Assembly: GCA_041739345.1 (NCBI GenBank)
Contig: JBGSNZ010000012.1
Location: 1-42,363 of the forward strand
Origin: Acetivibrio sp.
Lineage (GTDB): Bacteria; Bacillota; Clostridia; Lachnospirales; Lachnospiraceae
Reading direction: 5' to 3'
DNA: 42,363 nucleotides
Shown: positions 7,770 through 37,373 of the stretch, piece by piece
Numbering within the stretch: the stretch's first letter is position 1
Layout of the letters: every line of letters begins with the position of its first letter
Position numbers and translations under genes: made by a program
The notes under the pieces: generated by a model
Database searches by the model: none
What the model was told of the DNA's origin: nothing
Seen by the model: only the letters and a program-made list of their open reading frames with translations

Positions 7770-7804
7770 TAGTTGCATTTACAGTTGAACGAAATAATAG
7801 AAAT

Positions 7805-8770: not shown

Positions 8771-8800
8771 TGATTCATACAAAAGAGGAGAAAAAGTATA

Positions 8801-9334: not shown

Positions 9335-9457
9335 AAAGTTTCCTCACAGCGTTTTTTGTTTGCTTGCAATCTATTAAGTCATATTATACACTATAGAAAC
9401 AAGGATTAAAATAGAGGAATCAAACTTAACAGTTGATTTTAAATAAAGGATTTAACT

Positions 9458-11447: not shown

Positions 11448-11484
11448 AAAAGTGTGCTATACTAAAAGGTAAGGTGGTGAAGCC

Positions 11485-11925
11485 ATGGATATAAAAGTAA
11501 ACCAATTGCAACAGGTAAATCAAATAGAGAAACCGCAAGCCACGCCTGAAAGTGACGGAAGCTTCAAGTTTACTTTGATTAGTAGTATTGAGGAGCAGGA
11601 ACTTAAAGCGCAGCTTACTTTTATGATGGAAGAAATCACACAACAGGGGAAAAAGCTTGGAAAACATATGGATGTTCGTGATATGAAGCATTATCGCCAG
11701 TTGATAAAAGAATTTATGAATGAAGTGGTGAACCGTTCTCATAAGTTTAGTAGGGAAAACTTCCTTGACAGAAGGGGACGTCATCGTGTATATGGTATGG
11801 TGAAATTAGTAGACCAGACACTTGACGAATTGGCTACGGAACTTTTAAAAGATGAGAAGGATCATCTTCTTATTTTAAGTAGAATTGATGAAATTCGAGG
11901 AATGCTATTAGATATCATCACATAG
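11485..11925 (+). CDS. YaaR/DUF327 family protein
   Basis: 146 aa. Size, position (between the kinase and holB) and the [12 protein letters not shown] region match YaaR. Confidence 0.7.
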
Positions 11926-11939
11926 GAGGAGGGATTTTC

Positions 11940-14602: not shown

Positions 14603-14607
14603 AGTTA

Positions 14608-15646: not shown

Positions 15647-15904
15647 TTAGTCAATTATGCCTGCGAGTTTAGCAAGCTGAACAATAGAATCTTTAGAAAC
15701 CTTTTTTCCGCAAAAATCATAAAGCGATTCTTTTTCACCAGTAAAAACATCTGCTGGTTCGTATTTTGTTAATATAATCTTATCTTCGTCAACAAAAATT
15801 TCGAGAGCATCTCGATCTTCAACTCCAAGAGTTCTTCTTAATTCAATTGGAAGAGTAATTCTACCAAGATCATCTAACTTTCTAACAATTCCAGTACTTT
15901 TCAT
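15647..15904 (-). CDS. abrB: transition-state regulator AbrB (SpoVT/AbrB swapped-hairpin domain)
   Basis: MKSTGIVRKLDDLGRITLPIELRRTLGVEDRDALEIFVDEDKIILTKY is near-identical in pattern to B. subtilis AbrB. Conserved position after rsmI on the opposite strand. Confidence 0.9.
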   Translation of the reverse strand: MKSTGIVRKLDDLGRITLPIELRRTLGVEDRDALEIFVDEDKIILTKYEPADVFTGEKESLYDFCGKKVSKDSIVQLAKLAGIID

Positions 15905-16195
15905 CTGTGGTCTCCTTTAGCTAATTCATCTATGTTCTGTATATAACATATCATAGTAAATAAATGGAGACAACACAAAAATTTATTTTTATATAGCATA
16001 TAATTAATATGGAAAAAATATGAAATTCAAAATAATGTAAAAATAAGAGAAAAAAAGGAAAAGAAAACAGGGTAAAAACAACATAAAATATTGATAAATA
16101 GGGAATTTAGTCTTCTAAAACAACATTTTTTAAAGACAAATAAAATCAATTTTTGAAATAAAGTTTGAAAAAAGAAATAATTAGCATAAATTTAA

Positions 16196-18190
16196 TCACA
16201 AATCAGTATTATAGTAGAATTCATTTGTTGGTGGCAAACAACTGTGATTTTTGCAAACATAGTAGGTTGTTTTCTCATTCAAAAATTTATATTCCTCCGT
16301 AGGTTTTAGAAGGATAGTTACATTGGCATTTAGATGAATAATACCCTTTATTTTTTTCAAATCATCTTTATTTTTTAGTACGATAGTAATATGTTCAGGT
16401 GTGTTTAGATATAGTGAAAGTGCAAGCAAATAAAAGCTATAACCAGGAGGGTAATCCTTAACAGTGGAGGACATAAAGGTAAGCTGTTTTTCTGCTAAAT
16501 CGGTTAATTTTGGGTCTTTAATTAGATAAGACAGTTTCACAAGATTATATGCCATTACTGAGTTTCCACTAGGAATAGCTCCGTCATAGGTTTCTTTTCG
16601 CTTGATTATTAGTGATTCATTTTCCCTACCGTAAAGGTAAAAACCTCCATTTTTTTCATCGTAGAAATCAGAAATTACTTTATTGCAAAATTGGATTGCC
16701 TTATCTAAATATTTGCTATCATTTGTTGCTTCATACAAACCAATCAAAGCAAATATATAAAACGAGTAGTCATCCAAAAAACCGTTACCAGAATGTTCGC
16801 CTTCACGATAGCTAACAAATAATGAATTTCCGTCAGATAAATACTGTTCAATAAATGAATTTGTTTTTTTTGCTGCCTGCAGATAAGATTCTTCATTCAT
16901 TACACGATATAAAAGAGCAAAAGCAGCTATCATCAATGCATTCCACGAGGTCAAAATTTTATCGTCCAAATGGAGTGTGGTTCTTGACCTACGGTAATCA
17001 TATAGTAGAGGAATATACTCATCCATTTGACCATCCATATTTTCATTAGCAAGTAGATTTGGTATATTTTTACCTTCAAAATTTCCTCTTTCGGTGATGC
17101 CATAATAATGGTTAAAAATTTCTCCATTTTTTTTACCCAAAACCGTAAGAACTTCATCGTAGTCAAAAACATAATATTTTCCCTCTACGCCCTCACTGTC
17201 AGCATCTTGAGCACAATAAAAACCACCATTATCTTTGGTCATTTCACGTAGAATAAATTCAGCCGTTTTTTCTGCAATATTGCGATAGAGAGATTTCTTC
17301 GTAATGTAATAAAGTTTAGCGTAACTCATTATAAGCAATGCATTATCATATAACATCTTTTCAAAGTGAGGAACGAGAAAATAACGGTCGGTAGAATATC
17401 TTGAAAATCCGTAACCGATATGATCAAATATACCCCCTCGATACATTTGTGTCAGTGTTGTTTCAACCATAGTTAGAATAGATTTATCTTTACCTTGTTC
17501 ATAGTAATCCATCAAAAACAATAGATTGTGTGGTGTAGGGAATTTAGGAGCCAAACCAAAGCCACCAAATTCTTTATCAAAGCTTTGCTTAAACATCAAA
17601 GCGGCTGAAGATAATAGTGTTTCGCTAATTTCCCCTCTTTGTTGCTCTGTTTTATCTAAATAGTTCATAATTTCTTCGGCAGAATTTATTAGCTGCGCAT
17701 TGTTTTCTTCCCAGTTTTTGTGGATGGACATAAGTAGTTCGGTAAATCCAAGCATGCCACGTTTTGTATTTTTTGGAAAATACGTTCCAGCATAAAAAGG
17801 CTTTTGCTCCGGAGTCATGAAAATACTGGTGGGCCAACCACCACTTCCCGTGAACGCCTGACAAAAAGCCATATACAAACTATCAATATCAGGCCGTTCT
17901 TCTTTATCCACCTTGATTGACACATAATAGTTGTTTAATAATTCAGCAATCTGTAAATCTTCAAAGCTTTCATGAGCCATAACATGACACCAATGGCAGG
18001 TACTATAGCCAATGCTTAAGAAAATAGGTTTATTCTCCTTTTTGGCCTTCTCAAATGATTCTTCACCCCAGGGATACCAATTGACAGGATTGTAAGCATG
18101 TTGTAAAAGGTACGGAGATTTTTCATCCACTAATTTATTGGGGATTCGAGTAATTTCGGTTTCTTTATTCGTTACGTGTTCAGTTTGCAT
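16196..18190 (-). CDS. thioredoxin-domain protein YyaL (DUF255) with C-terminal six-hairpin glycosidase-like domain
   Basis: 664 aa. N-terminal Trx-like CxxC (STCHWCH) in the DUF255 context [18 protein letters not shown], then a long alpha/alpha-toroid region. Confidence 0.85.
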
Positions 18191-18371
18191 TCAATACACT
18201 CCTTATAGTAATAATTTAAACCTTTTAAAAGTTATAAATTTATTTAATAGAATTATTATGCCAATAAGGAGTGTGTTTTATGAAATAAGAAATAAAATTA
18301 GTGATGACTTTGTAAGCTATAATAATCAATATTTTTTTACTATATCTGTTGTTTTTCTTATTAATCTTTGT

Positions 18372-18400
18372 TTGACATGCTGGCTACCTTGCGCTACAAT
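18372..18400 (+). promoter_or_regulatory. sigma-A-type promoter for the padR operon
   Basis: TTGACA (18372-18377), 17-nt spacer, TACAAT (18395-18400). AAGGAGG RBS 33 nt downstream. Confidence 0.55.
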
Positions 18401-18447
18401 ATAGAGACAGTAACTTGCTTTGCAAGATAGACAAGGAGGTTGGGAAT

Positions 18448-18786
18448 TTGGCGGACAGGTCACAATTTCTTCGTGGAACATTAGAAGGTTGTATATTAAA
18501 GATTATTGAACAAAATGAAACCTATGGTTATGAGATTACAGAGAAGCTTCAGAAGTTTGGTTTTGCTGAAATTAGTGAAGGCACTATTTACCCATTACTT
18601 TTAAGACTTGAAAAAAACCAAATGATTGATTCAATAAAAAAAGAATCAGCATATGGACCAAAGAGAAAATATTATAACTTGACGGATACCGGAAGAAAAG
18701 AACTTCAAGAGTTTTATGCTTTGTGGTGTGAAATTCGAAATGGTATCAATCTTATTTTTCAAGATGGAGGGGAAGGAAAATGTTAA
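18448..18786 (+). CDS. PadR-family transcriptional regulator
   Basis: wHTH with the PadR signature YGYEITEKL...GTIYPLLLRLEKNQMI. TTG start 8 nt after AAGGAGG. The ORF-track start 18415 lies in the promoter/leader. Confidence 0.8.
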   Translation: MADRSQFLRGTLEGCILKIIEQNETYGYEITEKLQKFGFAEISEGTIYPLLLRLEKNQMIDSIKKESAYGPKRKYYNLTDTGRKELQEFYALWCEIRNGINLIFQDGGEGKC

Positions 18787-19463
18787 ACTTAAAGTATATA
18801 AGAGACGAAAATAACCAATTGAGTAAAAATCTAAGTATGGAATATCAGAAAGTATATACGGATATTGTATGCTATCTGAGAGTAAGCAATTTGAATGATA
18901 TGGAGCAGGAAGAAGTTAATAGCGATATATTAAGTATGTTTATTGATTGGGAAAAGCAAAGCATAAAGGTAAAAGATATGATTGGAGAAGACTATAAACA
19001 ATTTGCTGACGATATTGTTGCCGCTATAAATCCGCATAAATCCATACTGAAAAAAAGTAAAGAATATGCATTAATTATTATAAAAGCATTTGGCTATATG
19101 CTCACAATTGACTTTATAGTATTATATTTACCTGGATTATTGAAAGGAAATTTATCTTTAGTCTACGATTATACATTAGTCATGGCGGCTAGAGGATTAA
19201 TTATCTTTGTTGCTATGATTTTTGCAATAAACTACATTGGAGAAAACAGTTTTTCTCTTTCGGAAAAACAGATTCCAAAAACTACTCGTTTCTTAATTGG
19301 CTGTTGTATTGGATTGTTTATTATTCTATATATATTTCTGTCAAAGATGCTAGGCGAAGTAATTCTTTTATCAATTAATATATATTTTATTTTGGCGATT
19401 GTTGCAATTTTTTGGATATATAATGGCCTTCGTTGGCTTATAATCTATAAAAATTCACGTTGA
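18780..19463 (+). CDS. membrane protein, PadR-operon partner
   Basis: 227 aa. ATG overlaps the padR stop (ATGTTAA). Soluble N-terminal domain plus three or four TM helices, a common PadR-associated arrangement (DUF1700/DUF2812-like). Confidence 0.6.
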   Translation: MLNLKYIRDENNQLSKNLSMEYQKVYTDIVCYLRVSNLNDMEQEEVNSDILSMFIDWEKQSIKVKDMIGEDYKQFADDIVAAINPHKSILKKSKEYALIIIKAFGYMLTIDFIVLYLPGLLKGNLSLVYDYTLVMAARGLIIFVAMIFAINYIGENSFSLSEKQIPKTTRFLIGCCIGLFIILYIFLSKMLGEVILLSINIYFILAIVAIFWIYNGLRWLIIYKNSR

Positions 19464-19594
19464 ATCAATTAAGCAATTTATAAATTGTAAATATGCGTTG
19501 GTAATAATTTCTAACCGCAAAATTAACGTATATGCTTATGCTCGGTTTATTTAAATAACAATTGGAAACAATAAAGAAAAAGGGGGGTCATTCT

Positions 19595-19942
19595 ATGGAT
19601 GAAAATATTAATAATTATCAAGTAATTGAAAAAAATCTAGATTACCTTATTGAAAATCATAAGGAAATATATGATGCATATAAAAATTATGGAAAATTAG
19701 TACACGAAAATGGTGGTCCACTAGATGAGAAAACAAGATGGCTGATTAAAGTAGTACTATCTACTGATTGTCAAAATGAATATTCTTTAAAAACGCATAT
19801 TATGAAAGCTTTAAAAAGTGGATGTACCGAGGAGGAAATTGAACATGCTATTCTATTAGTAGGTCCAACTTCAGGGTTCCCAAAGATGATGAATGGACTG
19901 CTGATTTTTAGACAAGTTATTGAACAGATTAGAAGAAATTGA
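19595..19942 (+). CDS. carboxymuconolactone decarboxylase / AhpD-like family protein
   Basis: 115 aa, AhpD core-like motif ...STDCQNEYSLKTHIMKALKSG.. (C..xxxH pattern). The ATG is 7 nt after AAAGGGGGG. Confidence 0.7.
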   Translation: MDENINNYQVIEKNLDYLIENHKEIYDAYKNYGKLVHENGGPLDEKTRWLIKVVLSTDCQNEYSLKTHIMKALKSGCTEEEIEHAILLVGPTSGFPKMMNGLLIFRQVIEQIRRN

Positions 19943-20008
19943 GTTTTCTTATTATATCTAACCTACTTTTTGATATTCCTTAGTAAAATGATAAAAGAAC
20001 AATAAATA

Positions 20009-20062
20009 GGAGTTTGCAAAATGAGAAACTGAGAAATTTCAATTTTGCGAACTCCATTTTAT
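20009..20062 (+). terminator. probable rho-independent terminator (long-loop hairpin)
   Basis: GGAGTTTGCAAAAT ... ATTTTGCGAACTCC (14-bp stem, 1 mismatch) followed by ATTTTATTTG. Confidence 0.4.
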
Positions 20063-20309
20063 TTGTTCTATCAATATACAAATGAAAAAACTAAATGCCA
20101 CATAACAAGTAAAAGCAACCATAATAGATTATTTTCTGTAAATTTGCCATACCCTACACCGGCATATGCCATTTGAAACAGAATATGCATCAATGAAAAC
20201 ATGATAGCTGAAATAATGGTTGTTATTATTTGATAATATAAAGAATCAAGATATAACTTTTATCTAATCAGAATACATTATTATAAGAAATTTTTCGGGA
20301 AATGATTGC

Positions 20310-20891
20310 ATGTTAAATTATTTATGGGCATTTATGATTATTGTGGGTGTTGTCTTTGGAGTTTGCAACGGGAAAATTGACGCAGTTAGTAATGCGGCGC
20401 TGGACTCAAGTAAGGAGGCAGTAACACTTTGTATTACCATGCTTGGAATTATGTCTTTATGGACGGGGCTTATGCAAGTAGCAAAAGCAGCAGGAATTAT
20501 TGATGCACTTACAAAGAAGTTAATGCCGCTATTACATTTTTTGTATCCAAACATTCCAAAAGGGCATGTTGCAAATGAATACGTTGCGTCTAATATGATT
20601 GCAAACCTTTTGGGTCTTGGGTGGGCAGCCACACCGATGGGATTAAAAGCAATGGAGGAGCTTTCGAAATTAAATAAGAACTCGGAGCGTGCAAGTGTGG
20701 ATATGTGTACATTTTTAATTGTAAACATATCATCGCTGGAATTGATTCCAATTAACATCATTGCTTATCGAAGCCAGTATGGTTCGGTGAAACCAACTTC
20801 CATTTTGGTAGCAGCAATTATAGCTACAGCATGTTCAACATTGGCAGGAATTATTTTTGCAAAAGTAATGGGGAGAAGGAAAAAAGTATGA
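20310..20891 (+). CDS. spmA: spore maturation protein A (nucleoside-recognition/Gate domain)
   Basis: 193 aa polytopic membrane protein. SpmA-like motifs (LWTGLMQVAKAAGIID, NLLGLGWAATPMGLKAMEEL). Confidence 0.85.
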   Translation: MLNYLWAFMIIVGVVFGVCNGKIDAVSNAALDSSKEAVTLCITMLGIMSLWTGLMQVAKAAGIIDALTKKLMPLLHFLYPNIPKGHVANEYVASNMIANLLGLGWAATPMGLKAMEELSKLNKNSERASVDMCTFLIVNISSLELIPINIIAYRSQYGSVKPTSILVAAIIATACSTLAGIIFAKVMGRRKKV

Positions 20892-21415
20892 AATTTCTAA
20901 TTTATATTTCCGACTATATCATTCCCTTTGTTATTTTTTATATTGTAGCATTCGGAATCTTGCAAAAAGCAGATGTTTATGATGAGTTTGTAGTAGGCGC
21001 AAAAGATGGGTTGCGCACCGTTGTGGGGATAATGCCTACTTTAGTTGGTCTTATGGTTGCAGTTGGGATTTTGAGGGCTTCAGGAGCGCTTGATTTTGTT
21101 GCTAGCATCCTATCACCAGCTATGCAATATTTATGTTTTCCCTCCGAATTAATCCCACTTGCTACAGTAAAGATGTTTTCTTCTTCTGCAGCCACTGGAT
21201 TATTGCTTGATGTTTATAAGGAGCATGGACCAGATTCTTATCTAGGGACCCTGGCTTCCATTATGATGAGTTGTTCCGAAACGATTTTTTACACAATGTC
21301 GGTCTATTTTATGACGGCAAAGGTAAAAAAGACACGTTATACCTTAGCAGGTGCATTAATAGCTACACTTGCTGGAATTATTGCAAGCGTTTTCTTGACA
21401 GGAATCATTACATAA
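20888..21415 (+). CDS. spmB: spore maturation protein B
   Basis: ATGA overlap with the spmA stop. SpmB-like membrane protein (GIMPTLVGLMVAVGILRASGALD). Confidence 0.85.
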   Translation: MKFLIYISDYIIPFVIFYIVAFGILQKADVYDEFVVGAKDGLRTVVGIMPTLVGLMVAVGILRASGALDFVASILSPAMQYLCFPSELIPLATVKMFSSSAATGLLLDVYKEHGPDSYLGTLASIMMSCSETIFYTMSVYFMTAKVKKTRYTLAGALIATLAGIIASVFLTGIIT

Positions 21416-21574
21416 AAGGAATTGTACATAAAATATTTGTAATTGTTTATAATGAACAACATCAAACCCAATTAACACAGACATTTTAATTGTATCTCAT
21501 TTCCTATCGTGATATTATGAAGATAATGGAAATGAGATACTTTTATACGCAAAATAGTAAAGGTGATGATAATT

Positions 21575-23659
21575 ATGGTAGAACAAATTGGGAATAGAAA
21601 AATACATCTGGTTTCGTTTGATAATATTGAAGGATTTGATATAAGACCTGGGTTTTATGAGATAAATGGAGCAACAGCAATACCTGGTGGTGTGAATTTT
21701 ACCATTCATTCCAATCAGGCAACTTCTTGTGAACTTCTTTTGTTTCATCGAACCGAGGAAAAACCTTATGCAATTTTAAAATTTCCAGAGCATTATCGGA
21801 TTGGAAATGTGTATTCTATGATTGTGTTTCAACTTAACATTGAAGAATTTGAATATGCATATCGCTTAGATGGACCTTATATTCCGGAAAAAGGGATTCT
21901 TTTTGACAAATCAAAATATTTATTAGACCCGTATGCGAAAGCAGTCACTGGTCAAAGTGTCTGGGGAGAAACAAGGGCAATTGGAAATCAGTATAAAGCC
22001 CGCGTAGTAAAGGATGACTTTGACTGGGAGAATTGCGTCCAACCGTTAACACCAATGGAGGATTTAATAATCTACGAAATGCATGTTCGTGGGTTTACAA
22101 AAGATATCTCTTCTGGTGTTGTAAACCATGGGACCTTTGCTGGGCTTAGGGAAAAGATCCCTTATTTGAAAGAGCTTGGAATTACAGCGGTAGAGCTTAT
22201 GCCTATTTTTGAGTTTGATGAGCTTCTTGAAATAAGGGAACATGATGGAGTAAAACTTCTTGATTACTGGGGATACAATACCGTAAGCTTTTTCTCACCA
22301 AACACCGGATATTGCTCCAGCATTGAATACAATCGGGAAGGAAATGAATTAAAGCAATTGATTAAAGAATTGCATCAGAATGAAATCGAAGTATTTTTGG
22401 ATGTTGTATTCAATCATACCGCAGAAGGCAATGAAAAGGGACCTTACTTTTCGTTTAAAGGATTTGACAACAACATTTATTATATGCTAACACCGGAGGG
22501 ATTTTATTTTAATTTCAGTGGCTGTGGAAACACGCTCAACTGCAATCATCCAATTGTGCAGCAAATGATACTAGAGTGCTTGCGTTATTGGGTAACCGCA
22601 TACCGGGTGGATGGGTTCCGATTTGATTTAGCTAGTATATTAGGAAGAAATGAAGATGGAACGCCGATGAGTAAACCACCATTATTGCAAAGCCTTGCAT
22701 TTGATCCTATTTTAGGTAGAGTAAAGCTGATTGCAGAAGCTTGGGATGCCGGAGGCCTTTATCAGGTTGGCAGCTTTCCTGCATGGAATCGATGGGTTGA
22801 ATGGAACGGAAAATATCGGGATGATATTCGAAGTTTCTTAAAGGGTGATTATGGAAAAGTAAAGGCAGCAGCCAATTGTATAACTGGTTCTCCAGATTTA
22901 TATTTACCAGAGAGCGGAGGGAGCAAAGCATGCATAAACTTTATTACTTGCCATGACGGATTTACGCTTCATGATTTGTATTCCTATAATATTAAACATA
23001 ATAAAAAGAATGGATGGAACAATACCGATGGAAGCGATGCTAATTGTAGTTGGAATTGTGGTGTGGAAGGAGAAACCGATAATATAGAAATCCTCAAGCT
23101 ACGAAAGCGAATGGTAAAAAATGCATGCGCCGTTTTAATGTTAAGCCGTGGTGTTCCTATGTTTTTGGCAGGAGATGAATTTGGTAATACCCAATATGGA
23201 AACAACAATGCCTACTGCCAGGATAACTTAGTTTCTTGGCTTGACTGGAAACTGCTGGTTGAGAATCGCGATCTGTTTGAGTTTTTTAAAACAATGATAG
23301 CGCTCCGCAAAGAACATCGTATTATCCGCATGGAGACACCAAGATGCTCCATTAATTTGCCCGAAATAAGCATACATGGTCTAAGGCCGTTTGAACAAAA
23401 TTTTAATGAAAACAATCACTATTTGGGTATATTATATGCTGGAAGAACGGAAAATAATTTAGAAGACGACATTCTCTACCTGGCAATTAATACCTATTGG
23501 GAAGAACAGGAAGTGGAACTTCCGCATCTTAGAACAGGAAGTGTTTGGAAGCAAATTGTTTCTACAATGGAGATGCAAATGGATGAAGATATCATACTAA
23601 ATAACAAATTAGTTATAGGGTCACGAAGCGTTATAATTATGCAAGCCATTTCATTATAA
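21575..23659 (+). CDS. glgX: GH13 debranching enzyme (GlgX/isoamylase/pullulanase type, CBM48 N-domain)
   Basis: All four alpha-amylase-family regions are present: I DVVFNH, II GFRFDLASIL, III AEAWD, IV FITCHD. N-terminal E-set/CBM48-like domain. ATG 21575 is 8 nt after AAAGGTGA. Confidence 0.85.
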   Translation: MVEQIGNRKIHLVSFDNIEGFDIRPGFYEINGATAIPGGVNFTIHSNQATSCELLLFHRTEEKPYAILKFPEHYRIGNVYSMIVFQLNIEEFEYAYRLDGPYIPEKGILFDKSKYLLDPYAKAVTGQSVWGETRAIGNQYKARVVKDDFDWENCVQPLTPMEDLIIYEMHVRGFTKDISSGVVNHGTFAGLREKIPYLKELGITAVELMPIFEFDELLEIREHDGVKLLDYWGYNTVSFFSPNTGYCSSIEYNREGNELKQLIKELHQNEIEVFLDVVFNHTAEGNEKGPYFSFKGFDNNIYYMLTPEGFYFNFSGCGNTLNCNHPIVQQMILECLRYWVTAYRVDGFRFDLASILGRNEDGTPMSKPPLLQSLAFDPILGRVKLIAEAWDAGGLYQVGSFPAWNRWVEWNGKYRDDIRSFLKGDYGKVKAAANCITGSPDLYLPESGGSKACINFITCHDGFTLHDLYSYNIKHNKKNGWNNTDGSDANCSWNCGVEGETDNIEILKLRKRMVKNACAVLMLSRGVPMFLAGDEFGNTQYGNNNAYCQDNLVSWLDWKLLVENRDLFEFFKTMIALRKEHRIIRMETPRCSINLPEISIHGLRPFEQNFNENNHYLGILYAGRTENNLEDDILYLAINTYWEEQEVELPHLRTGSVWKQIVSTMEMQMDEDIILNNKLVIGSRSVIIMQAISL

Positions 23660-23767
23660 CTAGTAAAAAAACACTTGTAATTAAAAAAAACACTTGCTTT
23701 TTTAAAAAGAGTTGATAAAATGAATAAATATACAAAAAATATACATTCAAATACGGAGGGTTATAAA

Positions 23768-24556
23768 ATGAAGAAATTAATAGCAGTAGTTTTAATGTTA
23801 TGTACGACCGTATCACTTGCCGGATGTGGAAAATCGGTACCAGCAAATCAGGTGTTTTCAATAGATGATTTACCAGGGAAAACAATTGGTGTCCAGCTAG
23901 GAACAACAGGTGATATTTATGCAGCGGATTACGAAGAGCAAGATTCTACCGTAGAACGTTACAACAAAGGAAATGATGCAATTCAGTCTTTAAAGCAGGG
24001 TAAAATTGACTGTGTTATTATTGATGAACAACCAGCAAAAGCATTTGTTGCAAAGAATGATGACTTAAAGATTATCGAAGGTGGATTTGATCCAGAAGAA
24101 TATGCAATCTGTATTTCGAAAGATAAAGCGGATTTAAAAACTAGTATTAATCAAGCCATCACTGATTTAAAATCAGAAGGAACCTTAGATGCCATCATTG
24201 GAAACTATATTGGGGACGATACCAAAGGAAAGACTCCTTATACATCTCCTGCAGATATTATTAGAAGCAACGGAATACTCGTAATGGCTACGAATGCTGC
24301 ATTTGAACCTTACGAATATTATCAAGACCAAAAGGTTGTTGGTATTGATGTTGACTTAGCACAGGCAATCGCTGATAAGCTTGGAATGGAATTAAAAGTT
24401 GAGGATATGGAATTTGATGCGATCATCAATGCCGTACAGTCTGGAAAAGCAGATATCGGAGTGGCAGGAATGACGATTACAGAAGACCGTCTTATCAGCA
24501 TTGACTTTACCGATACGTATACAACCGCACAGCAAGCAATTGTGGTTAGAAAATAA
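23768..24556 (+). CDS. amino-acid ABC transporter substrate-binding lipoprotein (family 3 SBP)
   Basis: Signal peptide with lipobox LAGC. Two-lobe SBP_bac_3 pattern, tandem in this protein. ATG 23768 after GGAGGG. Confidence 0.85.
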   Translation: MKKLIAVVLMLCTTVSLAGCGKSVPANQVFSIDDLPGKTIGVQLGTTGDIYAADYEEQDSTVERYNKGNDAIQSLKQGKIDCVIIDEQPAKAFVAKNDDLKIIEGGFDPEEYAICISKDKADLKTSINQAITDLKSEGTLDAIIGNYIGDDTKGKTPYTSPADIIRSNGILVMATNAAFEPYEYYQDQKVVGIDVDLAQAIADKLGMELKVEDMEFDAIINAVQSGKADIGVAGMTITEDRLISIDFTDTYTTAQQAIVVRK

Positions 24557-24569
24557 GCAGGTGGTATAA

Positions 24570-25259
24570 TTGGAAGATTTTAAGATAAGATTTATAAACA
24601 ACTTTATCACGGATAATCGATGGAAATATCTGACGGATGGCCTTAAAACCACATTTTTAATTACTTTTTTTGCAGTATTAATTGGTATTTTGCTTGGATT
24701 TTTGGTAGCAATTATTCGTTCCACGGCTGACAAAAACGGTAATTTCAAAATAGCAAATGCAATTTGTAAGCTTTATTTAACGGTAATTCGAGGAACGCCG
24801 GTAATGATTCAATTACTTATCATTTACTATGTTATTTTTCAAAGCGTTGCAATCGATAAGCGAGTAGTAGCTATATTAGCATTTGGACTTAACTCTGGGG
24901 CGTATGTTGCAGAAATTGTAAGGTCTGGTATTATGGCAGTTGAAGAAGGGCAATTTGAGGCAGGAAGAAGTTTGGGATTTGGTTATGTTCAAACAATGTG
25001 GTATATTATCATGCCTCAGGCTTTTAAAAATGTACTGCCTGCATTAGGTAACGAGTTTATTGTGTTAGTAAAAGAGACCTCAATTTGTGGTTATATTGCA
25101 TTAACGGATTTAACACATGGCGGAAATACAATACGAAGCCAGACCTATGATGCGTTCATGCCCCTAATTGCAGTAGCACTTATCTATCTTTTAATAGTAT
25201 GTGCCCTTTCTTCCGGGGTATCTCGATTGGAAAGGAGACTTCGTACCAATGAGCGATAA
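24570..25259 (+). CDS. amino-acid ABC transporter permease (His/Glu/Gln/Arg/opine family)
   Basis: EAA-loop region ([20 protein letters not shown]) and polytopic TM profile. Confidence 0.85.
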
Positions 25260-25986
25260 TATTTTATTTGAAATTGAAAATTTATATAAAGACTTTGGCG
25301 AAGTTAAGGTCCTTAATAATATTAATACAACCATCTCGCAAGGAGAGGTAGTGGTAATAATTGGGCCATCCGGTTCCGGAAAATCGACTTTTCTTCGCTC
25401 CCTTAACTTACTAGAACAGCCAACCTCCGGAACTATCCGTTTTGAGGGGCTAGATATTACAGATAAAAAATCAAATATTAATAAATACCGCCAAAAAATA
25501 GGAATGGTATTTCAGCATTTTAATTTATTTCCACATAAGACAATTCTTGAAAATATGACACTTGCTCCTATGAAGCTTTTTAAGAAATCAAAAGAAGAAG
25601 CACAGAAAGAAGCAATGGAATTATTAAAGAGAGTTGGTTTGGAAGAAAAGGCAAATGCTTACCCTTCCCAGTTATCCGGTGGTCAAAAACAAAGAATAGC
25701 TATTGTACGTTCTCTTTGCATGAATCCAGACGTTATGCTCTTTGACGAACCAACGAGTGCACTCGATCCTGAAATGGTTGGAGAAGTTTTAAATGTTATG
25801 GAAGACCTAGCAAGAGGCGGAATGACAATGGTAATCGTAACACATGAAATGGGATTTGCTAAAAGAGTGGGAACTAGAATTATATTTATTGATGAGGGAG
25901 AAATTAAGGAAGAAAACCCTCCAATGGAGTTTTTTGAACATTCACAAAATCCACGTTTGAAAGAGTTCTTGTCGAAAGTGTTATAA
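25249..25986 (+). CDS. amino-acid ABC transporter ATP-binding protein
   Basis: Walker [11 protein letters not shown]-loop, signature LSGGQKQR, Walker [13 protein letters not shown]-loop. The start overlaps the permease stop. Confidence 0.9.
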
Positions 25987-25990
25987 ATTA

Positions 25991-26330
25991 AATTCTGGGT
26001 TAACTACGAAGGACGGACGCGAGTTTTTGTTGATAAGTGACGCCAGGAAAGGCTGATCAATTTTTATACTTTTTACAATTTACACGGCTCCCATGCTAGG
26101 ATTTTATATCAATCGTATAAGCATTCCACGTAATCTCTGGACGTCGAAAAAATAGCTCTAAGGAGCTATTTTTTCGACAGAGTTTACGTTCCATATACTT
26201 TAATGATATAAAATCCTAGCATGGGAGCCGTGTAAATTATACTATAGATTTATGAGCTCAGCCTTTCATGGCTGACTACGAGATACGGACTCGCTGATTT
26301 TCTAGCGTTTTATAAACCAAAACTAGAATT
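25991..26330 (+). repeat. type-1 foldback/MITE-like repeat, copy A (long imperfect palindrome with AATTCTGG termini)
   Basis: Begins AATTCTGGGTT 4 bp after the ABC ATPase stop and ends ..AACCAAAACTAGAATT (inverted terminus). Internally a ~300-bp imperfect hairpin centred on GCTCTAAGGAGCTAT. About 85-90% identical to rc(29388-29722) and to 42021-42222. Confidence 0.8.
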
Positions 26331-26706
26331 AAGAGTGAAGTGGTAAAAAGTCAAAGGTAGTTGTCATGTGATACACGGTCTTTGACTTTTTACTGTAAAC
26401 ATTCCAAACAACAGCGGCACCATTTTTCAAAATCAGCAAAAAAGCGGTGCTTATAATCTTCCTAATTCGAATGGAGGGGATGGCCTGTCCTTTGCATCAT
26501 TTAGCATATGAGATGGAAACTCTATTGAAAAAGAAGCTCCAAAGAGCTTCTTTTTCAATGATTAGAGGTTCTATCGAATGCTTATGCGGTTGATGCTAAG
26601 GACAGGCCATCCCCTCCATTCGAATGTCGAAACCATAAAAGCACCGTTTTCTTGCGTGACTTTCCCAAAACACGACGCGTACGTCATGAACAGTTAAACC
26701 AGAATT
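26331..26706 (-). repeat. type-2 foldback repeat, copy B (inverted relative to copy C)
   Basis: Ends ..AAACCAGAATT (rc AATTCTGGTTT). Contains a near-perfect nested palindrome TTCGAATGGAGGGGATGGCCTGTCCTT...AAGGACAGGCCATCCCCTCCATTCGAA with core GAAAAAGAAGCTCCAAAGAGCTTCTTTTTC. rc(B) aligns with 28934-29387. Confidence 0.75.
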
Positions 26707-26716
26707 CTTGAAATTA

Positions 26717-28753
26717 CTAGATGCTTTCGTTCGGAGTTTCTTCTTCTATTTTAAGACCGTCATCCATTTTTTCTTCTGTTTCACTAGGTGCGTTTACATT
26801 ATTTTCTACAACTTCGTCCGTTTTAATTGTTACGCCGAATTTTTCAAGAGTGATAAACTTTAGAAGCGTATCTATTATAGTTCCACTTCCGCCATCTTTG
26901 TTGTCTCCCATATTTACTACGGTCTTTGGAACGATATCAACCTTAGCACTCTTGATTGCATCCGATAATTTTTCTGAAACATCCTGAATAACACGATATT
27001 CTGCTCCGCCATAAGCCTTAACCTGAGCATCAATTGCACGGGCCTTAGCTAAACCTACATTAGATTCCTTAGATGCTTCCGCTTCACCTTCTAAGGTAAT
27101 TTTTAAGGAATTAGCTTTTGCAAGAGCAACAATCTGATTTGCTTCCTGCTCCGCTTTACTTGCTAATGCAGCACCGCTATTACGTTCGATTTCAATCTGA
27201 ATCTTTGAATTAGTAAGGAAGCTTTGCTGTTCCGCAACTGCCTCAGCTTCGCGGAGGGATTTTTCACTTTCCGCTGCAGATTGTTGTTTCTGGTAGGTTA
27301 CTTTCTTTTCTTCCGCAATCTGTCTTTCGCGTAATTGCGTTAGGATATTCTCAATCTGCTTATCTTCTACCGGTGATTTCGGAGTACCGATTAATACTTC
27401 TTCTAATTGAAGATTATATTTCTGGAATTTATCCCTCATCTCACCAAGGGATTTTTCACGGATTTCACTACGTTCCTGAATAAGTTCAATTAAGGTTTTT
27501 GTCTGAGCTACATCTTTGAAATATGCACTAACAAGTGGGTCAAGGGATTGGTTAACCAGCATATTAATATCACCAAAACGTTGGATGACCCAAGGAGCCT
27601 GCTTGTAATCAATATGCATAACAACAGATAGCGGTAAGGATGGCTCAAATGCATCCTTTGTAATGATATCTACTTCGGTCAAATTTTCATCATATTTATG
27701 AGTTCCGACTTCAGATTTGTTCCATTTTAAGATGATGTTCGTAGTTGGAACAAGAACGACTTTACCTGCATCCGTATTAAATGCATATTTACCAGGCATC
27801 AAAGGTTTTTCTAATACGCCCTTGCAGCCTTGACCAACCAGCTCGCCGTGTTTATAATCAGCACCCGTTGTATCCACACCCTCCGTACCAAAGAAGGAAA
27901 CAACAACGCCCACGAAACCGATAGGAACAACAGTCTTTGGTCTGAATTCTATGGTAGCAAACAACCGGTTAATGTAATAGGTACCATCCGTTAATACTTG
28001 TAACTGCTTACCTCTTTTTCCGCCAATTTCCAAGAATTTTTCTGGGTCTTGGAAACTTGCATGTTCCGCGCCCATATCAGGGGCAATGATTTCGCCTTGT
28101 TCAAGAGACTGTCCATCATGAATCGTTACGATGCCCATCAAATCACTATCCTGACTATTATTTCCCATGATTACTACCGGTCGAAAAGCAGTTCTATTAT
28201 TTAATGTTTCTTGCATGCTAGCCAACTCTTGTCTTTCATGTACATTACCACCACTAATAGCTTTAATATCGTTAGGGGTGATTACAATAAATTGTGCTAA
28301 GTTAATTGCATATGTACCTTCACGTAAGATGCCTCTTTGTGGACCTCTTTGACCGCCAGACTGTAAGAATCCTTTAACATCTTGAAAATTATTAGCTTCT
28401 TTTACTACCTTGCCAAGTGTTTGTACCGGGTTAAGTGGATGCCCGTCTTTTGCAAATACATAGGCAATTTGTCCTTGGGGTACAGTAATTAGTGGATACC
28501 TATGAATTTTGTACATTAACACAGATTTAAAATGAATACCACCACGAAGAACGTCAGGCTCATAACCAGCTTCCCCATTTAATGCAATGATAGAATCTTT
28601 CAAAGAACCTTTCATACTCCACCATTTTTCTACTACAGCTACTTCATTTGAATTAATAATCCTTAATCCTAAAATCTGAAAGATTAGCAAATATAGCCCT
28701 AATAACACTCCTAGTCCAATCAAAATGATTGGTAACATTGAAATAATTTCCAT
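26717..28753 (-). CDS. floT: flotillin-family (SPFH/band-7) membrane protein, FloT-like
   Basis: 678 aa. N-terminal TM hairpin, SPFH domain, long Ala/Glu/Gln-rich coiled-coil 'flotillin' region (...AEEKKVTYQKQQSAAESEKSLREAEAVAEQQ...EQEANQIVALAKANS...) and acidic C-terminal tail. RBS AAGAGGGA 6 nt before the ATG. Confidence 0.85.
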   Translation of the reverse strand: MEIISMLPIILIGLGVLLGLYLLIFQILGLRIINSNEVAVVEKWWSMKGSLKDSIIALNGEAGYEPDVLRGGIHFKSVLMYKIHRYPLITVPQGQIAYVFAKDGHPLNPVQTLGKVVKEANNFQDVKGFLQSGGQRGPQRGILREGTYAINLAQFIVITPNDIKAISGGNVHERQELASMQETLNNRTAFRPVVIMGNNSQDSDLMGIVTIHDGQSLEQGEIIAPDMGAEHASFQDPEKFLEIGGKRGKQLQVLTDGTYYINRLFATIEFRPKTVVPIGFVGVVVSFFGTEGVDTTGADYKHGELVGQGCKGVLEKPLMPGKYAFNTDAGKVVLVPTTNIILKWNKSEVGTHKYDENLTEVDIITKDAFEPSLPLSVVMHIDYKQAPWVIQRFGDINMLVNQSLDPLVSAYFKDVAQTKTLIELIQERSEIREKSLGEMRDKFQKYNLQLEEVLIGTPKSPVEDKQIENILTQLRERQIAEEKKVTYQKQQSAAESEKSLREAEAVAEQQSFLTNSKIQIEIERNSGAALASKAEQEANQIVALAKANSLKITLEGEAEASKESNVGLAKARAIDAQVKAYGGAEYRVIQDVSEKLSDAIKSAKVDIVPKTVVNMGDNKDGGSGTIIDTLLKFITLEKFGVTIKTDEVVENNVNAPSETEEKMDDGLKIEEETPNESI

Positions 28754-28933
28754 TCGTTTTCCCTCTTTCTTTTATAAAGTCAACTATTTACACATAGGAT
28801 TGTGCAAAAGGTGCTCCCCTAGAAACGGAGGCTCCCTAATTCCTTTTGCATTCCTAATATATATAATATCACAGTTTATTACATTATGTTTAACTATATG
28901 AGATTTTTAATTGTTTTCAAGGCATAATGATTT

Positions 28934-29387
28934 AATTCTGGTTTTCCTACGCAGGACGGACGTGGGGGCTTTTGGAAAGTCACGCAGGATGAGCGGTGAG
29001 TATATGGTTTTCGAAATTCGAATAGAGCACCGGGGCTGGTCTTAAAATCAGACGCATTAACCACTCGGCAGAACCTCTAAGCAAGGCAGAATGAGCTCTT
29101 TGGGAGCTCATTCTGCCTTGCTTAGAGGTTCTACCTCATAATGCTAAAATGCTTTTAAGACCAGCCCCGGTGCTCCATTCGAACTAGTAAGACTATGACC
29201 ACTGCGCATTTTGCTGGTTTTTGGTAAACGCCTCGCTGTTGTCTGAAATGTTAAAGTAAATACTGGAATTTATACGAAGATAGTAGTAAAAAGAGCAGGT
29301 GATGCCGTTGTTATTTGGTAATTTGCAGAAAAGAATTATTTATATCTCACTGGGTTTGCTTTTGACATTTTACCGAATGCTCCCAAA
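28934..29387 (+). repeat. type-2 foldback repeat, copy C
   Basis: Starts AATTCTGGTTTTCCTACGCAGGACGGACG (same 5' module as copy A). Nested palindrome CGAATAGAGCACCGGGGCTGGTCTTAAAA...TTTTAAGACCAGCCCCGGTGCTCCATTCGAA with core CCTCTAAGCAAGGCAGAATGAGCTCTTTGGGAGCTCATTCTGCCTTGCTTAGAGG. The distal part is homologous to rc of B. Confidence 0.75.
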
Positions 29388-29722
29388 TTCTGGTTTTTAC
29401 TATATGAAACGATTGTAAACCAGCGAGTCCGTATTTCGTAATCAGCCACGAAAGGCTGAGCTCATAATCTATCATTCAATTTACACGGCTCCCAGGCTAG
29501 GATTTTATATCATTAGAGCATATGGAACGTAAACTCTATCAAAAATCGGCTCCCAAGAGCCAATTTTTCGATTGCTTAGAGGTTACGTGGAATGCTTATG
29601 CGACTGATATAAAATCTTAGCCTGGGAGCCGTGTAAATTGTATAAAGACAAAACTGCTCAGGCTTTCCTGGCGTCACTTATCAACAAAAACTCGCGTCCG
29701 TCCTTCATAGTTAAACCGAAAT
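29388..29722 (-). repeat. type-1 foldback repeat, copy D (inverted copy of A)
   Basis: rc(D) aligns base-for-base with A over ~335 bp with scattered substitutions and small indels. Confidence 0.8.
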
Positions 29723-29800
29723 CTAAATCTTTACTTTGAGATAAAAATTGCGTATAATAAAATTAAATTTAACGGTTTGTGAGTATAGGGAGGATGAAAT

Positions 29801-29953
29801 ATGGATAAGTTATTTAGTGACGACGATTTGGCTGATTTATTGGCAGAGCTTGATACTGAAAATAACAAGGTACCGATTGAAGATGATCCGGAAATGGAAG
29901 CTGCCCAAAGAAGATACACCGAAATTATTAGGAAGCACAAGGATGACAAGTAG
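29801..29953 (+). CDS. small acidic hypothetical protein (50 aa)
   Basis: ATG 6 nt after a strong GGGAGGA RBS. Clean 50-codon ORF MDKLFSDDDLADLLAELDTENNKVPIEDDPEMEAAQRRYTEIIRKHKDDK. Below the 60-aa cutoff of the ORF track. No family recognised. Confidence 0.35.
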   Translation: MDKLFSDDDLADLLAELDTENNKVPIEDDPEMEAAQRRYTEIIRKHKDDK

Positions 29954-29988
29954 GAAATGCGAGATAAGTTGGAAATTCGGGAAACTTC

Positions 29989-30017
29989 TTGACAAATTAG
30001 ATTTCTGCGAATAAACT
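29989..30017 (+). promoter_or_regulatory. candidate sigma-A promoter for the metG leader
   Basis: TTGACA (29989-29994), 17 nt, TAAACT (30012-30017). Located ~50 nt before the first T-box stem. Confidence 0.35.
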
Positions 30018-30064
30018 AGTGCGTATATATTCCGCTTATGGATATAAGTGGATTAAAATATTTA

Positions 30065-30364: not shown

Positions 30365-32329
30365 ATGGAAAAGAAAACGTATTATTTAACAACAGCCATT
30401 GCCTATACTTCAGGCAAACCACATATTGGAAACACTTATGAGGCAGTACTTGCAGACAGTATTGTAAGATTTAAACGATATCAAGGATATGATGTTCGTT
30501 TTCAGACAGGAACAGACGAACATGGACAAAAAATTGAATTAAAGGCAGCAGAAGCCGGAATTACGCCAAAGGAATTTGTTGACCAGGTTGCAGGAGAGAT
30601 CAAAAGCATATGGGACTTAATGAATACCTCTTATGATCATTTCATTCGTACTACCGATAAAGATCATGAAAAACAGGTTCAGAAAATTTTCCGCAAATTA
30701 TATGAAAATGGCGATATTTATAAAGGATATTATGAAGGAATGTATTGTACTCCTTGTGAATCGTTCTTTACTTCTTCCCAGCTTGTCGATGGAAAATGTC
30801 CTGATTGCGGAAGAGAATGTCAGCCTGCAAAAGAGGAAGCGTATTTCTTAAAACTAAGTAAGTATACAGACCGTTTAATTGAGCATATTAATACACACCC
30901 AGAATTTATTCAGCCAGAATCTAGAAAGAATGAAATGATGAATAACTTCCTTTTACCAGGTCTTCAGGATTTGTGTGTCTCCAGAACGACCTTTAAATGG
31001 GGAATTCCGGTTGACTTTGATGACAAACATGTTGTATATGTATGGCTTGATGCACTTAGTAACTATATTACTGGGCTGGGTTTTGATGTGGATGGAAATA
31101 ATGATGCACTTTATAAAAATTTCTGGCCTGCTGATTTACACTTAATTGGAAAAGATATTCTTCGATTCCATACGATTTATTGGCCGATTATGTTAATGGC
31201 ACTTGAAATTCCATTACCAAAACAGATATTTGGTCATCCATGGTTACTTCAAGGTGATGGAAAGATGAGCAAATCCAAGGGCAATGTACTTTATGCAGAT
31301 GATCTTGTATCTATCTTTGGGGTAGATGCGGTTCGTTACTTTGTGCTTCATGAGATGCCATTCGAAAATGATGGTGTTATTACCTGGGAGCTCATGGTAG
31401 AGAGAATGAATTCTGACCTTGCAAATACCTTGGGAAACTTGGTAAATCGTACTATCTCTATGTCGAATAAATACTTTGACGGCATTGTAAATAATAGAAA
31501 TGTAAAAGAATCCGTGGATGATGAATTAATTCAGCTAACATTTGAAACACCAAAAAAAGTAGAAGAAAAGATGGAAAAACTTCGTATTTCTGATGCCATT
31601 TCCGAGATCTTTACCCTATTCAAACGTTGCAATAAATATATTGACGAAACAATGCCTTGGGCGCTTGCAAAAGAGGAGGAGAAGAAAGCACGTTTAGAAA
31701 CTGTACTATATAACTTGGTAGAAAGTATTAGTGTGGGAGCTAGCTTGCTAGAAAGCTTTATGCCAGAAACCTCTGCAAAGATTTTGACACAAATTAATGA
31801 TACAAAGAGAGAGTTAACAGCCATGGATGCATATGGAAAATATGTATCGGGTAGCAAAGTAGTGGAAAAACCAGAGATTCTATTTGCAAGACTTGATATG
31901 GAAGAAGTACTAAAACAAGTAGAAGAAATGAAAGCAAAGCAGACGAATAATAGCAAAGAGGTAGAGCCAGTGATGGAGCCGGGTATTGATATAGAAGCAA
32001 AAGCTGAAATTGAATATGATGATTTTATGAAAATGCAGTTTCAGGTAGGCGAAATTCTTGCGTGCGAGGAAGTTCCAAAGTCTAAGAAATTATTATGCTC
32101 TAAAGTACGCGTTGGAAGTGAAATAAAGCAAATTGTTTCAGGTATCAAACAGTACTATAGCGCAGAAGAAATGGTAGGAAAAAAGGTTATGGTTTTAGTT
32201 AACCTAAAACCTGCCAAATTGGCTGGGGTATTATCCGAAGGAATGCTTTTATGCGCAGAAGATGCAGATGGTAATTTAGCGCTTATGACACCGGAAAAGC
32301 CAATGCCTGCAGGAGCAGAAATTTGCTAA
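30365..32329 (+). CDS. metG: methionine--tRNA ligase (with C-terminal tRNA-binding EMAP/Trbp111 domain)
   Basis: Class I aaRS: HIGN (HIGH variant, PHIGNTYEA), KMSKS, Zn knuckle CTPCES...CPDCGREC. C-terminal OB-fold tRNA-binding domain. Confidence 0.95.
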   Translation: MEKKTYYLTTAIAYTSGKPHIGNTYEAVLADSIVRFKRYQGYDVRFQTGTDEHGQKIELKAAEAGITPKEFVDQVAGEIKSIWDLMNTSYDHFIRTTDKDHEKQVQKIFRKLYENGDIYKGYYEGMYCTPCESFFTSSQLVDGKCPDCGRECQPAKEEAYFLKLSKYTDRLIEHINTHPEFIQPESRKNEMMNNFLLPGLQDLCVSRTTFKWGIPVDFDDKHVVYVWLDALSNYITGLGFDVDGNNDALYKNFWPADLHLIGKDILRFHTIYWPIMLMALEIPLPKQIFGHPWLLQGDGKMSKSKGNVLYADDLVSIFGVDAVRYFVLHEMPFENDGVITWELMVERMNSDLANTLGNLVNRTISMSNKYFDGIVNNRNVKESVDDELIQLTFETPKKVEEKMEKLRISDAISEIFTLFKRCNKYIDETMPWALAKEEEKKARLETVLYNLVESISVGASLLESFMPETSAKILTQINDTKRELTAMDAYGKYVSGSKVVEKPEILFARLDMEEVLKQVEEMKAKQTNNSKEVEPVMEPGIDIEAKAEIEYDDFMKMQFQVGEILACEEVPKSKKLLCSKVRVGSEIKQIVSGIKQYYSAEEMVGKKVMVLVNLKPAKLAGVLSEGMLLCAEDADGNLALMTPEKPMPAGAEIC

Positions 32330-37224: not shown

Positions 37225-37373
37225 ATAATCACATCCTTTTCTAAATATATCGAACCATCGATATGCAATAGTATCCTTAGTGTATGCGTGATTTAAAAAA
37301 AGTATAAGTGATATCCAAATTAAAGTCAACTAAAAATCAATTGACAAAATTTGCTTATGACACTAAAAATTAA

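Follow-up and report, generated by a model that had tools for sequence, protein, structure and literature searches.

The question raised by this locus is how some 14 kb of DNA came to lie between abrB and metS. The locus is carried by an Acetivibrio sp. contig (JBGSNZ010000012.1, positions 1 to 42,363), and this whole stretch of 42,363 nt is referred to as the window. In Bacillus subtilis, abrB is flanked by yabC and metS (PMC3384351). A first-pass annotation of the window had taken such adjacency as the rule and had read the intervening DNA as one accessory insertion of about 14 kb. In the window, 14,158 nt separate the abrB start codon (15904) from the T-box leader of metS (30063). On the comparisons described below, the abrB-metS interval is very probably a layered mosaic, assembled in separate events of different ages, with two turnover slots flanking a resident spmAB pair. 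It is a case of ordinary bacterial genome turnover, not of a single foreign insertion.

Genes were identified by NCBIfam and Pfam scans, RNAs by Rfam, and copies of the hairpin repeats by an nhmmer profile. The open reading frames (ORFs), NCBIfam, Pfam and Rfam bore out the genes that the first-pass annotation listed for the interval and both backbones, at its coordinates or close to them. The features from rsmI to metS are as follows; loci and contigs of relatives are designated by L numbers.

14599-15450, plus strand: rsmI (TIGR00096, 272.8 bits), the final plus-strand gene of the left cluster; backbone
15647-15904, minus strand: abrB (PF04014, 41.9 bits; TIGR01439, 28.5 bits against a cutoff of 28.3); backbone
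15905-16195: abrB-proximal part of the ancestral abrB/spmA intergenic region, aligning with the empty sites of L164, L169 and L170
16196-20238: module M1 (yyaL, padR, DUF1048 gene, CMD gene), a lineage-specific insertion of 4,043 bp
16196-18190, minus strand: yyaL-like gene with a thioredoxin (DUF255) domain, 664 aa (PF03190, 255.9 bits)
18415-18786, plus strand: padR (PF03551, 88.5 bits), overlapping the DUF1048 gene
18780-19463, plus strand: DUF1048 gene (PF06304)
19562-19942, plus strand: CMD/AhpD-like gene (PF02627, 55 bits)
20239-21415, plus strand: spmA-proximal intergenic DNA, spmA and spmB; backbone
20310-20891, plus strand: spmA
20831-21415, likely start 20888, plus strand: spmB (Gate domain)
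21416-23684, plus strand: module M2, containing glgX at 21563-23659 (TIGR02100, 646 bits)
23685-25986, plus strand: module M3, an amino-acid ABC transporter of three genes
23720-24556, 24570-25259 and 25201-25986, plus strand: ABC binding protein, permease and ATPase, respectively
25982-26320, plus strand: hairpin repeat A (nhmmer E = 9e-91)
26387-26714, minus strand: hairpin repeat B (nhmmer E = 5e-87)
26717-28753, minus strand: SPFH/flotillin gene, YqiK-like (PF01145)
28926-29261, plus strand: hairpin repeat C (nhmmer E = 6e-83)
29395-29731, minus strand: hairpin repeat D (nhmmer E = 2e-94), right limit of the variable DNA
29801-29953, plus strand: small acidic ORF, 50 aa, also called in the same-strain Logan contig L001
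30063-30305, plus strand: metS T-box leader (RF00230, 114.4 bits against a gathering score of 93)
30365-32329, plus strand: metS (NF008900, 892 bits), first gene of the right cluster (metS, tatD, ksgA, PBP onward)

Gene order around abrB and metS in the Lachnospiraceae

The proteins of the window were placed by tblastn on two sets of 80 loci, one from genomes and anchored on metS, the other from metagenomes and anchored on rsmI, with flanks of at most 10 kb. The counts given here refer to the 54 GTDB loci with at least 9 kb upstream of metS and to the 30 loci with at least 9 kb downstream of rsmI. Among 185,579 GTDB species representatives, the best match for MetS was only 82% identical, and the 80 metS loci that were kept belong overwhelmingly to Lachnospiraceae. 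Closer relatives were found in collections of metagenomes and metagenome-assembled genomes (MAGs), among them MAGs with the label Velocimicrobium sp. (MetS 89%, SpmA 85%). The source of the window is a member of the Lachnospiraceae close to Velocimicrobium. Since its nearest relatives are Lachnospiraceae and Velocimicrobium-like, Bacillus subtilis is a very distant reference for this locus.

Within 10 kb upstream of metS, abrB or rsmI was present in 2 of the 54 loci, and none of the 30 rsmI loci had metS within 10 kb downstream. The direct succession of abrB and metS assumed by the first-pass annotation holds in Bacillus subtilis, but not in the Lachnospiraceae relatives compared here. The first-pass annotation had proposed a search for related strains with abrB next to the metS leader; the sole adjacency of abrB and metS was found in L046, a Candidatus Anaerostipes MAG, in which the segment of spmA, spmB, cargo and metS (4804-13207) is inverted in place between abrB and tatD. 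Through this inversion abrB stands on the 3' side of metS, and the 10 kb upstream of metS in L046 contain neither abrB nor rsmI.

Wherever abrB follows rsmI, spmA and spmB come directly after abrB (L084, L085, L091, L106, L112, L140, L147, L151 and L154), and spmA or spmB was found upstream of metS in 11 of the 54 loci. The recurrent order in the family is rsmI, abrB (minus strand), spmA, spmB, variable cargo, metS, tatD and ksgA. The abrB/metS junction is not conserved in the Lachnospiraceae.

Two further features of these loci were recorded. The metagenome relative L085 has an spmA that is apparently split by an insertion of about 6.6 kb (11799-12131 and 18719-18958). A DUF885 gene, lipoprotein-like and on the minus strand, is the gene found most often immediately upstream of metS in other Lachnospiraceae (7654-9420 in L002, 8030-9829 in L008, 7647-9464 in L067, 2056-3840 in L052). 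It was present upstream of metS in 17 of the 54 loci, in 10 of them as the immediate neighbour according to Pfam, and no DUF885 gene was found anywhere in the window.

Close relatives carry different parts of the interval

SpmA lies in the middle of the interval, so that 10-kb flanks around it show both sides, and close relatives were collected by an SpmA search (99% down to 84% identity). These relatives are metagenome contigs or MAGs, and their relatedness was ranked by the identity of single proteins. In L162-L166 and L169, the rsmI orthologs (82-93% identical) keep their position, and the abrB of the window is 89-100% identical to the gene after rsmI.

The closest relative, L162 (SpmA 97%), has backbone proteins 93-100% identical to those of the window. 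Its order is rsmI, abrB, yyaL, orf126, CMD, HxlR, flavodoxin-like, CLC channel, spmAB, glgX and ABC transporter; beyond the transporter stand repeat A, repeat B split by an insertion sequence (IS), and the flotillin gene. In L169 (91%), abrB (minus strand) adjoins spmA and is followed by spmB, GntR and permease genes. The same junction of abrB and spmA is seen in L170 (91%), a short contig ending in spmA. L168 (90%) carries AraC and binding-protein genes upstream of spmA, then spmB, glgX, the ABC transporter and unrelated genes, and its contig stops short of abrB. In L164 (86%), abrB adjoins spmAB, and glgX and the ABC transporter follow. The order abrB (minus strand), spmA, spmB is found again in L163 (85%), with an MCP gene and a sugar-sensing system behind it, and in L165 and L166 (84%), with an MCP gene, a large GGDEF/EAL gene and the ABC transporter.

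Two slots of variable content can be delimited in these contigs. Slot 1 is flanked by abrB and spmA in the window, L162, L163-L166, L169 and L170, and is either empty or filled with yyaL-padR-DUF1048-CMD or with yyaL-orf126-CMD-HxlR-flavodoxin-CLC. Slot 2 has spmB as its left bound in the window, L162-L166 and L169 (the L170 contig ends in spmA), and holds glgX-ABC, GntR-permease, MCP with sugar sensor, or MCP-GGDEF-ABC. Because the relatives carry different subsets of the modules, the parts of the 14 kb all differ in phylogenetic distribution. Only 16196-20238 is present or absent as a single unit with an empty site; spmAB, glgX, the ABC transporter and the flotillin gene are each distributed differently. 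The proposal of a 14-kb insertion was therefore correct in that the interval varies and in that 16196-20238 was inserted, as the empty sites of L164, L169 and L170 show, but not in taking it for one event, because spmAB is resident and glgX and the ABC transporter are common to sister lineages.

A 4,043-bp insertion between abrB and spmA

The breakpoints of M1 were located by blastn against L164, L169, L163 and L165 at 16051-16109 and 20238-20310 of the window. Alignment of the spacers refined the junction to within about 3 nt: M1 lies between TAGCATAAATTTAA, whose last base is 16195, and AAAGAAT, which starts at about 20239, and the first base of M1 belongs to the yyaL stop codon. When 15905-16195 and 20239-20312 are joined, the reconstructed empty site of 365 nt is collinear with the abrB/spmA spacers of 366-378 nt in L164, L169 and L170. 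Because the joined flanks match the spacers of the intact relatives, M1 is a true insert of 4,043 bp.

M1 is present only in the window and its closest relative L162, with the same two breakpoints and a different interior. The yyaL products of the two are 82% identical, with a dN of 0.098 and a synonymous divergence (dS) of 0.82, the highest of the region; nucleotide identity, about 0.92 in the backbone, drops at 16167 and stays at about 0.82 across yyaL. The CMD gene is 85% identical to the L162 copy at the amino acid level. No remnants of padR or the DUF1048 gene were found in L162, and none of the L162-specific genes (HxlR, flavodoxin, CLC and orf126) in the window. Among the relatives of this locus, the overlapping padR and DUF1048 pair occurs in the window only, and it has matches of 67-69% nucleotide identity on Clostridium megaplasmids. 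The raised yyaL divergence fits weaker constraint, and allelic replacement may also have contributed. An independent acquisition of yyaL by the window and L162 was considered and was not established, the dS being only moderately raised (0.82 compared with at most 0.64). The genes of M1 can be interpreted as a small set that deals with redox or electrophile stress.

The ends of M1 (16196 and 20238) showed neither direct repeats nor inverted ends, and neither a target duplication nor a recombination scar; M1 has no recombinase. Direct repeats pairing 16196 with 29731 were likewise not found. In NCBIfam and Pfam scans, no integrase or transposase was detected at the edges of the interval, and no tRNA stands there, the tRNAs of the window lying only at 220-903. 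The ORFs of at least 80 aa in 16196-30060 all belong to metabolic, regulatory, transport or SPFH families or are antisense overlaps, with no recombinase-family match among them. A blastn comparison of M1 and of the flotillin-repeat block with 72,556 plasmids gave no element-level match, only distant gene-level matches of 66-71% identity.

spmAB, glgX and the ABC transporter resemble the backbone in divergence and composition

spmAB is backbone, not cargo. glgX follows spmB in L162 (93% identical), L168 (85%) and L164 (79%), and was not found after spmB in L169, L163 or L165. The ABC transporter is located downstream of spmB in L162, L164 and L168, and also in L165 and L166 (76-86% amino acid identity); its DNA homology begins at 23685.

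Between the window and L162, the dS of the backbone genes (holB, ricT, methyltransferase, rsmI, abrB, spmA and spmB) was 0.25-0.60. glgX gave a value of 0.64, the three ABC genes gave 0.34-0.56 and the flotillin gene 0.60. The dS against L164 is near saturation, and the amino acid identities of glgX and the ABC genes to L164, L168 and L165 parallel those of the backbone.

The first-pass annotation had proposed comparing the GC content and codon usage of the interval with those of the backbone. The GC content at third codon positions (GC3) was 0.19-0.34 for genes of the interval, against 0.15-0.36 for backbone genes, and the synonymous-codon log-likelihood was -0.86 to -1.12 compared with -0.89 to -1.07. 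The GC profile of the interval (0.28-0.40) lies inside the range of the window. By per-gene GC, GC3 and codon likelihood, no compositional difference between interval and backbone was found, and the interval is thus indistinguishable from its surroundings in GC3 and synonymous usage. Judged by these values, glgX, the ABC transporter and the flotillin gene are long-standing residents of the lineage and not recent foreign DNA.

The right edge of the interval

The flotillin gene is 91% identical in L162, with its position kept. Orthologs that are 80-85% identical occur across the Lachnospiraceae in other genomic contexts: in L171 and L172 the gene stands between feoAB and a DUF2085 gene, and in Anaerocolumna (L173) the context is different again. 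It is a native gene of the family in an unusual place here.

To the right of it, the small acidic ORF of the first-pass annotation is present, but its real extent is 29801-29953 (50 aa) and not that of the 88-aa ORF at 29748-30014. An ORF of 49-51 aa directly upstream of metS was found in L174 (653-808, 76% identical to the small ORF of the window), L175 (274-426, 56%) and L176 (235-384, 50%), and no 50-aa ORF was found upstream of metS in 73 more distant metS loci. The MetS proteins of these three contigs are 96%, 89% and 86% identical to that of the window, respectively, and the metS region is collinear. Because it accompanies metS in all three, the small ORF belongs with the metS side. This ORF has a promoter-like site of its own, and its conservation upstream of metS is confined to this genus-level clade. 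In L176, the spacer between the small ORF and metS is just 125 nt, and seemingly only the terminator-proximal part of a putative T-box has been kept.

Repeat D ends about 70 nt before the small ORF. L174 carries a copy at the same site (265-584) and L175 a degenerate one (57-203); the repeat at the D site predates the split from the Velocimicrobium-like MAG. The contigs L174, L175 and L176 break at most 1.2 kb upstream of metS.

Hairpin repeats and the insertion sequence

The repeats form a family of units of about 330 nt, with five in the window (A-E) and further copies in L162, L174 and L175. The fifth unit and the DNA next to it are located outside the interval:

42015-42223, plus strand: hairpin repeat E (nhmmer E = 2e-60, model positions 6-232), 12 kb outside the interval
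42224-42363: terminal part of an IS with the inverted terminal repeat AAGGCTGCTGAAAAA, ending the contig

The units are non-coding, multi-copy, intergenic and palindromic over their full length. Repeat A folds into a single hairpin (dG -144 kcal/mol, z = -14.7), and the values for repeat C are -171 kcal/mol and z = -15.4. A and D are about 90% identical, and B and C about 73-77%. In an alignment of seven copies, 35 of the 95 consensus pairs carry double changes that preserve pairing, and the stem sequence differs between subfamilies. The termini of the units are inverted copies of each other (AAATTCTGGTTT...AAACCAGAAT), as a full-length palindrome predicts, and no consistent duplication was seen at the flanks. 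L162 has the ortholog of repeat A at 15674-16004, and L174 has a full-length copy at the repeat E site (12834-13149).

A profile search of 160 more distant loci found no copy of the repeat. Rfam, at gathering and E-value thresholds, assigned the repeats to no family, and only spurious sub-threshold matches to microRNA-type palindromes were obtained. A scan of IMG/VR with a 17-nt core of the repeat gave 7 exact matches, of which 0 were confirmed by the repeat hidden Markov model; these were taken as chance matches.

The IS at the contig end is 88.6% identical to the end of the IS with DUF772 and DDE_Tnp_1 domains that splits repeat B in L162 (16410-18086), and L174 begins inside the same IS (1-142). 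A CCATAT motif is the point at which the element interrupts both copy E in the window and copy B in L162, and this shared insertion site suggests target specificity of the IS for the hairpin. No parent IS with ends matching those of the repeat was found; the one IS in the vicinity carries other termini (AAGGCTGCTGAAAAA) and uses the repeat as its insertion site. As a dispersed hairpin family and an IS target, the repeats explain why assemblies break here.

The first-pass annotation had noted that the right edge of the interval coincides with repeat D and had taken this as consistent with a part of the repeats in its acquisition. The outer end of repeat D is indeed the right limit of the variable DNA, but a role in acquisition is not borne out, the family being dispersed, with copy E 12 kb outside the interval and further copies in relatives. 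Nothing shows that the repeats served as borders of an island or imported the interval, and they may have had a role in relocating the flotillin gene. ERIC/IRU elements, the Correia repeats of Neisseria, the RUP and BOX elements of pneumococci and the bcr repeats of Bacillus cereus are likewise non-coding, multi-copy, intergenic hairpins, and A-E match them in these respects; the present units are longer than most described intergenic hairpin families or families resembling miniature inverted-repeat transposable elements. We tentatively consider it possible, though with fairly low confidence, that A-E constitute an undescribed structured intergenic family of the Velocimicrobium-related lineage, with stems kept by compensatory change, that is targeted specifically by an IS encoding a DDE transposase and perhaps acted as the recombination substrate that moved the flotillin gene beside metS.

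Origin of the interval and rival explanations

The layered mosaic is built on direct observations: the module boundaries, the presence and absence of modules, the empty site, a composition that is native, and a synonymous divergence like that of the backbone. The ancestral order would have been rsmI, abrB (minus strand), spmA, spmB, a variable cargo, possibly the small ORF, metS, tatD and ksgA. Slot 1, between the divergent promoters of abrB and spmA, would have received the 4,043 bp of M1 after the split from the relatives with 86-91% SpmA identity, and the interior of M1 would have been remodelled since. Slot 2, after spmB, would hold older cargo, of which the ABC transporter extends to relatives with about 84% SpmA identity and glgX to three other species. 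The flotillin gene, found family-wide and sited elsewhere in other genera, would have become embedded here among four copies of the hairpin repeat, which would be passengers or recombination substrates and not island borders. Since mobility genes are absent, the DNA most likely entered through homologous recombination within the core genes on either side, or through illegitimate recombination in the AT-rich intergenic stretches, as has been described for hotspots without mobile elements.

Several points weigh against this history. The mechanism by which M1 was inserted is one that we infer, and its ends carry no target duplication or scar. The somewhat raised dS of yyaL could stem from replacement of the allele by that of a more distant donor and not from simple vertical descent. 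The polarity of gain and loss of glgX and the ABC transporter is uncertain, the relatives being ordered by single-protein identity and L169, L164 and L163 being about equally distant from the window. Furthermore, the linkage of flotillin gene, repeat C, repeat D and small ORF is seen in the window contig only, and the assemblies of the relatives break upstream of the small ORF.

A single accessory island of about 14 kb, possibly mobilised by the repeats and inserted into a contiguous abrB/metS junction, finds support in the adjacency of these genes in Bacillus subtilis (PMC3384351), in a content of the interval that is unlike that of most relatives, and in the position of repeat D at its right limit. 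We regard it as extremely unlikely. The adjacency that it presupposes is essentially absent from the Lachnospiraceae, in which spmAB is resident after abrB across the family, and an empty-site counterpart exists for 16196-20238 only. glgX and the ABC transporter are common to sister lineages, with a backbone-like dS against L162 and backbone-like amino acid identity in the others; the composition is native and mobility genes are absent; and the repeats bracket the flotillin gene alone and occur also outside the interval and in relatives. The first-pass annotation had held that an insertion would be refuted by finding the same genes in related genomes as an ancestral arrangement; for most of the interval, namely spmAB, glgX and the ABC transporter, the genes were found to be common to related genomes, which by that standard refutes the insertion there.

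Conversely, the arrangement of the window could be ancestral and that of the relatives shortened by deletion, with M1 lost repeatedly and glgX and the flotillin gene lost or replaced. The patchy occurrence of glgX and the ABC transporter among roughly equidistant relatives (present in L164 and L168, absent from L169 and L163) speaks for losses of this kind, and losses or replacements must therefore have taken place somewhere in slot 2. For the interval as a whole such a history is improbable: abrB adjoins spmA in six genus-level contigs (L163-L166, L169 and L170) and in at least seven distant ones, and M1 is present in the two closest genomes only. Moreover, the spacers of L164, L169 and L170 match the joined flanks of the window in length and order, which independent deletions would not restore. 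Similarly small is the chance that the locus is an assembly artefact, in which a misjoin at hairpins of 73-90% identity has created a linkage of the flotillin gene with the small ORF and metS that may not exist in the cell. In its favour, the Logan contig of the same strain, L001, begins within repeat D and stops within repeat E, L174, L175 and L176 all break at most 1.2 kb upstream of metS, and no independent assembly spans repeats C and D. However, the left three quarters, from holB to the flotillin gene with repeats A and B, are collinear with the independent L162 assembly from another sample; the order of repeat D, small ORF and metS is confirmed in L174; and copies A-D are sufficiently distinct for assembly, A and D being about 90% identical and B and C about 73-77%.

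Hotspots of gene turnover between core genes without mobile elements have been described by Oliveira, Touchon, Cury and Rocha in 2017 (PMC5635113). Both slots match such spots in having the same core flanks, differing accessory content and no integrase or tRNA; however, those spots were defined within species pan-genomes, whereas the comparison here is between species and genera on metagenome contigs. With classical genomic islands, integrative and conjugative elements, integrative and mobilizable elements and prophages, M1 shares a presence/absence polymorphism with a precise empty site. It differs from them in lacking an integrase or recombinase, a tRNA target and att-like repeats, in its native GC and codon usage, and in its size of 4 kb only. 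M1 is a precisely mapped, integrase-free insertion for which empty sites are available. Both M1 and the two slots around spmAB, near the origin-proximal core cluster, could be of use as neutral landing sites or to illustrate gene turnover that proceeds in the absence of mobile elements.

The flanking backbone and comparison with Bacillus subtilis

The remaining backbone genes on the two sides of the interval are the following.

9458-10870: decarboxylase, left backbone cluster
10863-11447: kinase, 194 aa, left backbone, between the decarboxylase and the yaaR-like gene
11485-11925: yaaR-like gene, left backbone
11940-12950: holB, left backbone
12943-13857: ricT/yaaT, left backbone
13817-14602: methyltransferase, left backbone
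32424-33194: tatD, right backbone
33212-34078: ksgA, right backbone

The Bacillus subtilis block runs yaaO, tmk, yaaR, holB, yaaT, yabB, yabC (rsmI), abrB, metS, yabD and ksgA, and in the window the families to the left and right of the interval are the same and keep that order. The sampled Lachnospiraceae differ from it in placing spmAB and then variable cargo after abrB. In Bacillus subtilis, spmAB is located elsewhere, in the dacB operon. Bacillus synteny is a poor null model for Clostridia, and an island defined against it dissolves when proper relatives are used.

A second difference from Bacillus subtilis concerns the kinase, which here is probably of the guanylate-kinase and not the thymidylate-kinase type: the guanylate-kinase domain (PF00625) was read in the orthologs of L163-L165, which are 77-84% identical to the kinase of the window. 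In the right part of the window, the divergent intergenic region of mecA and a Ser-Thr kinase gene (37329-37391) carries a 30-nt motif, ACTAAAAATCAATTGACAAAATTTGCTTAT, in two tandem copies that are 87% identical.

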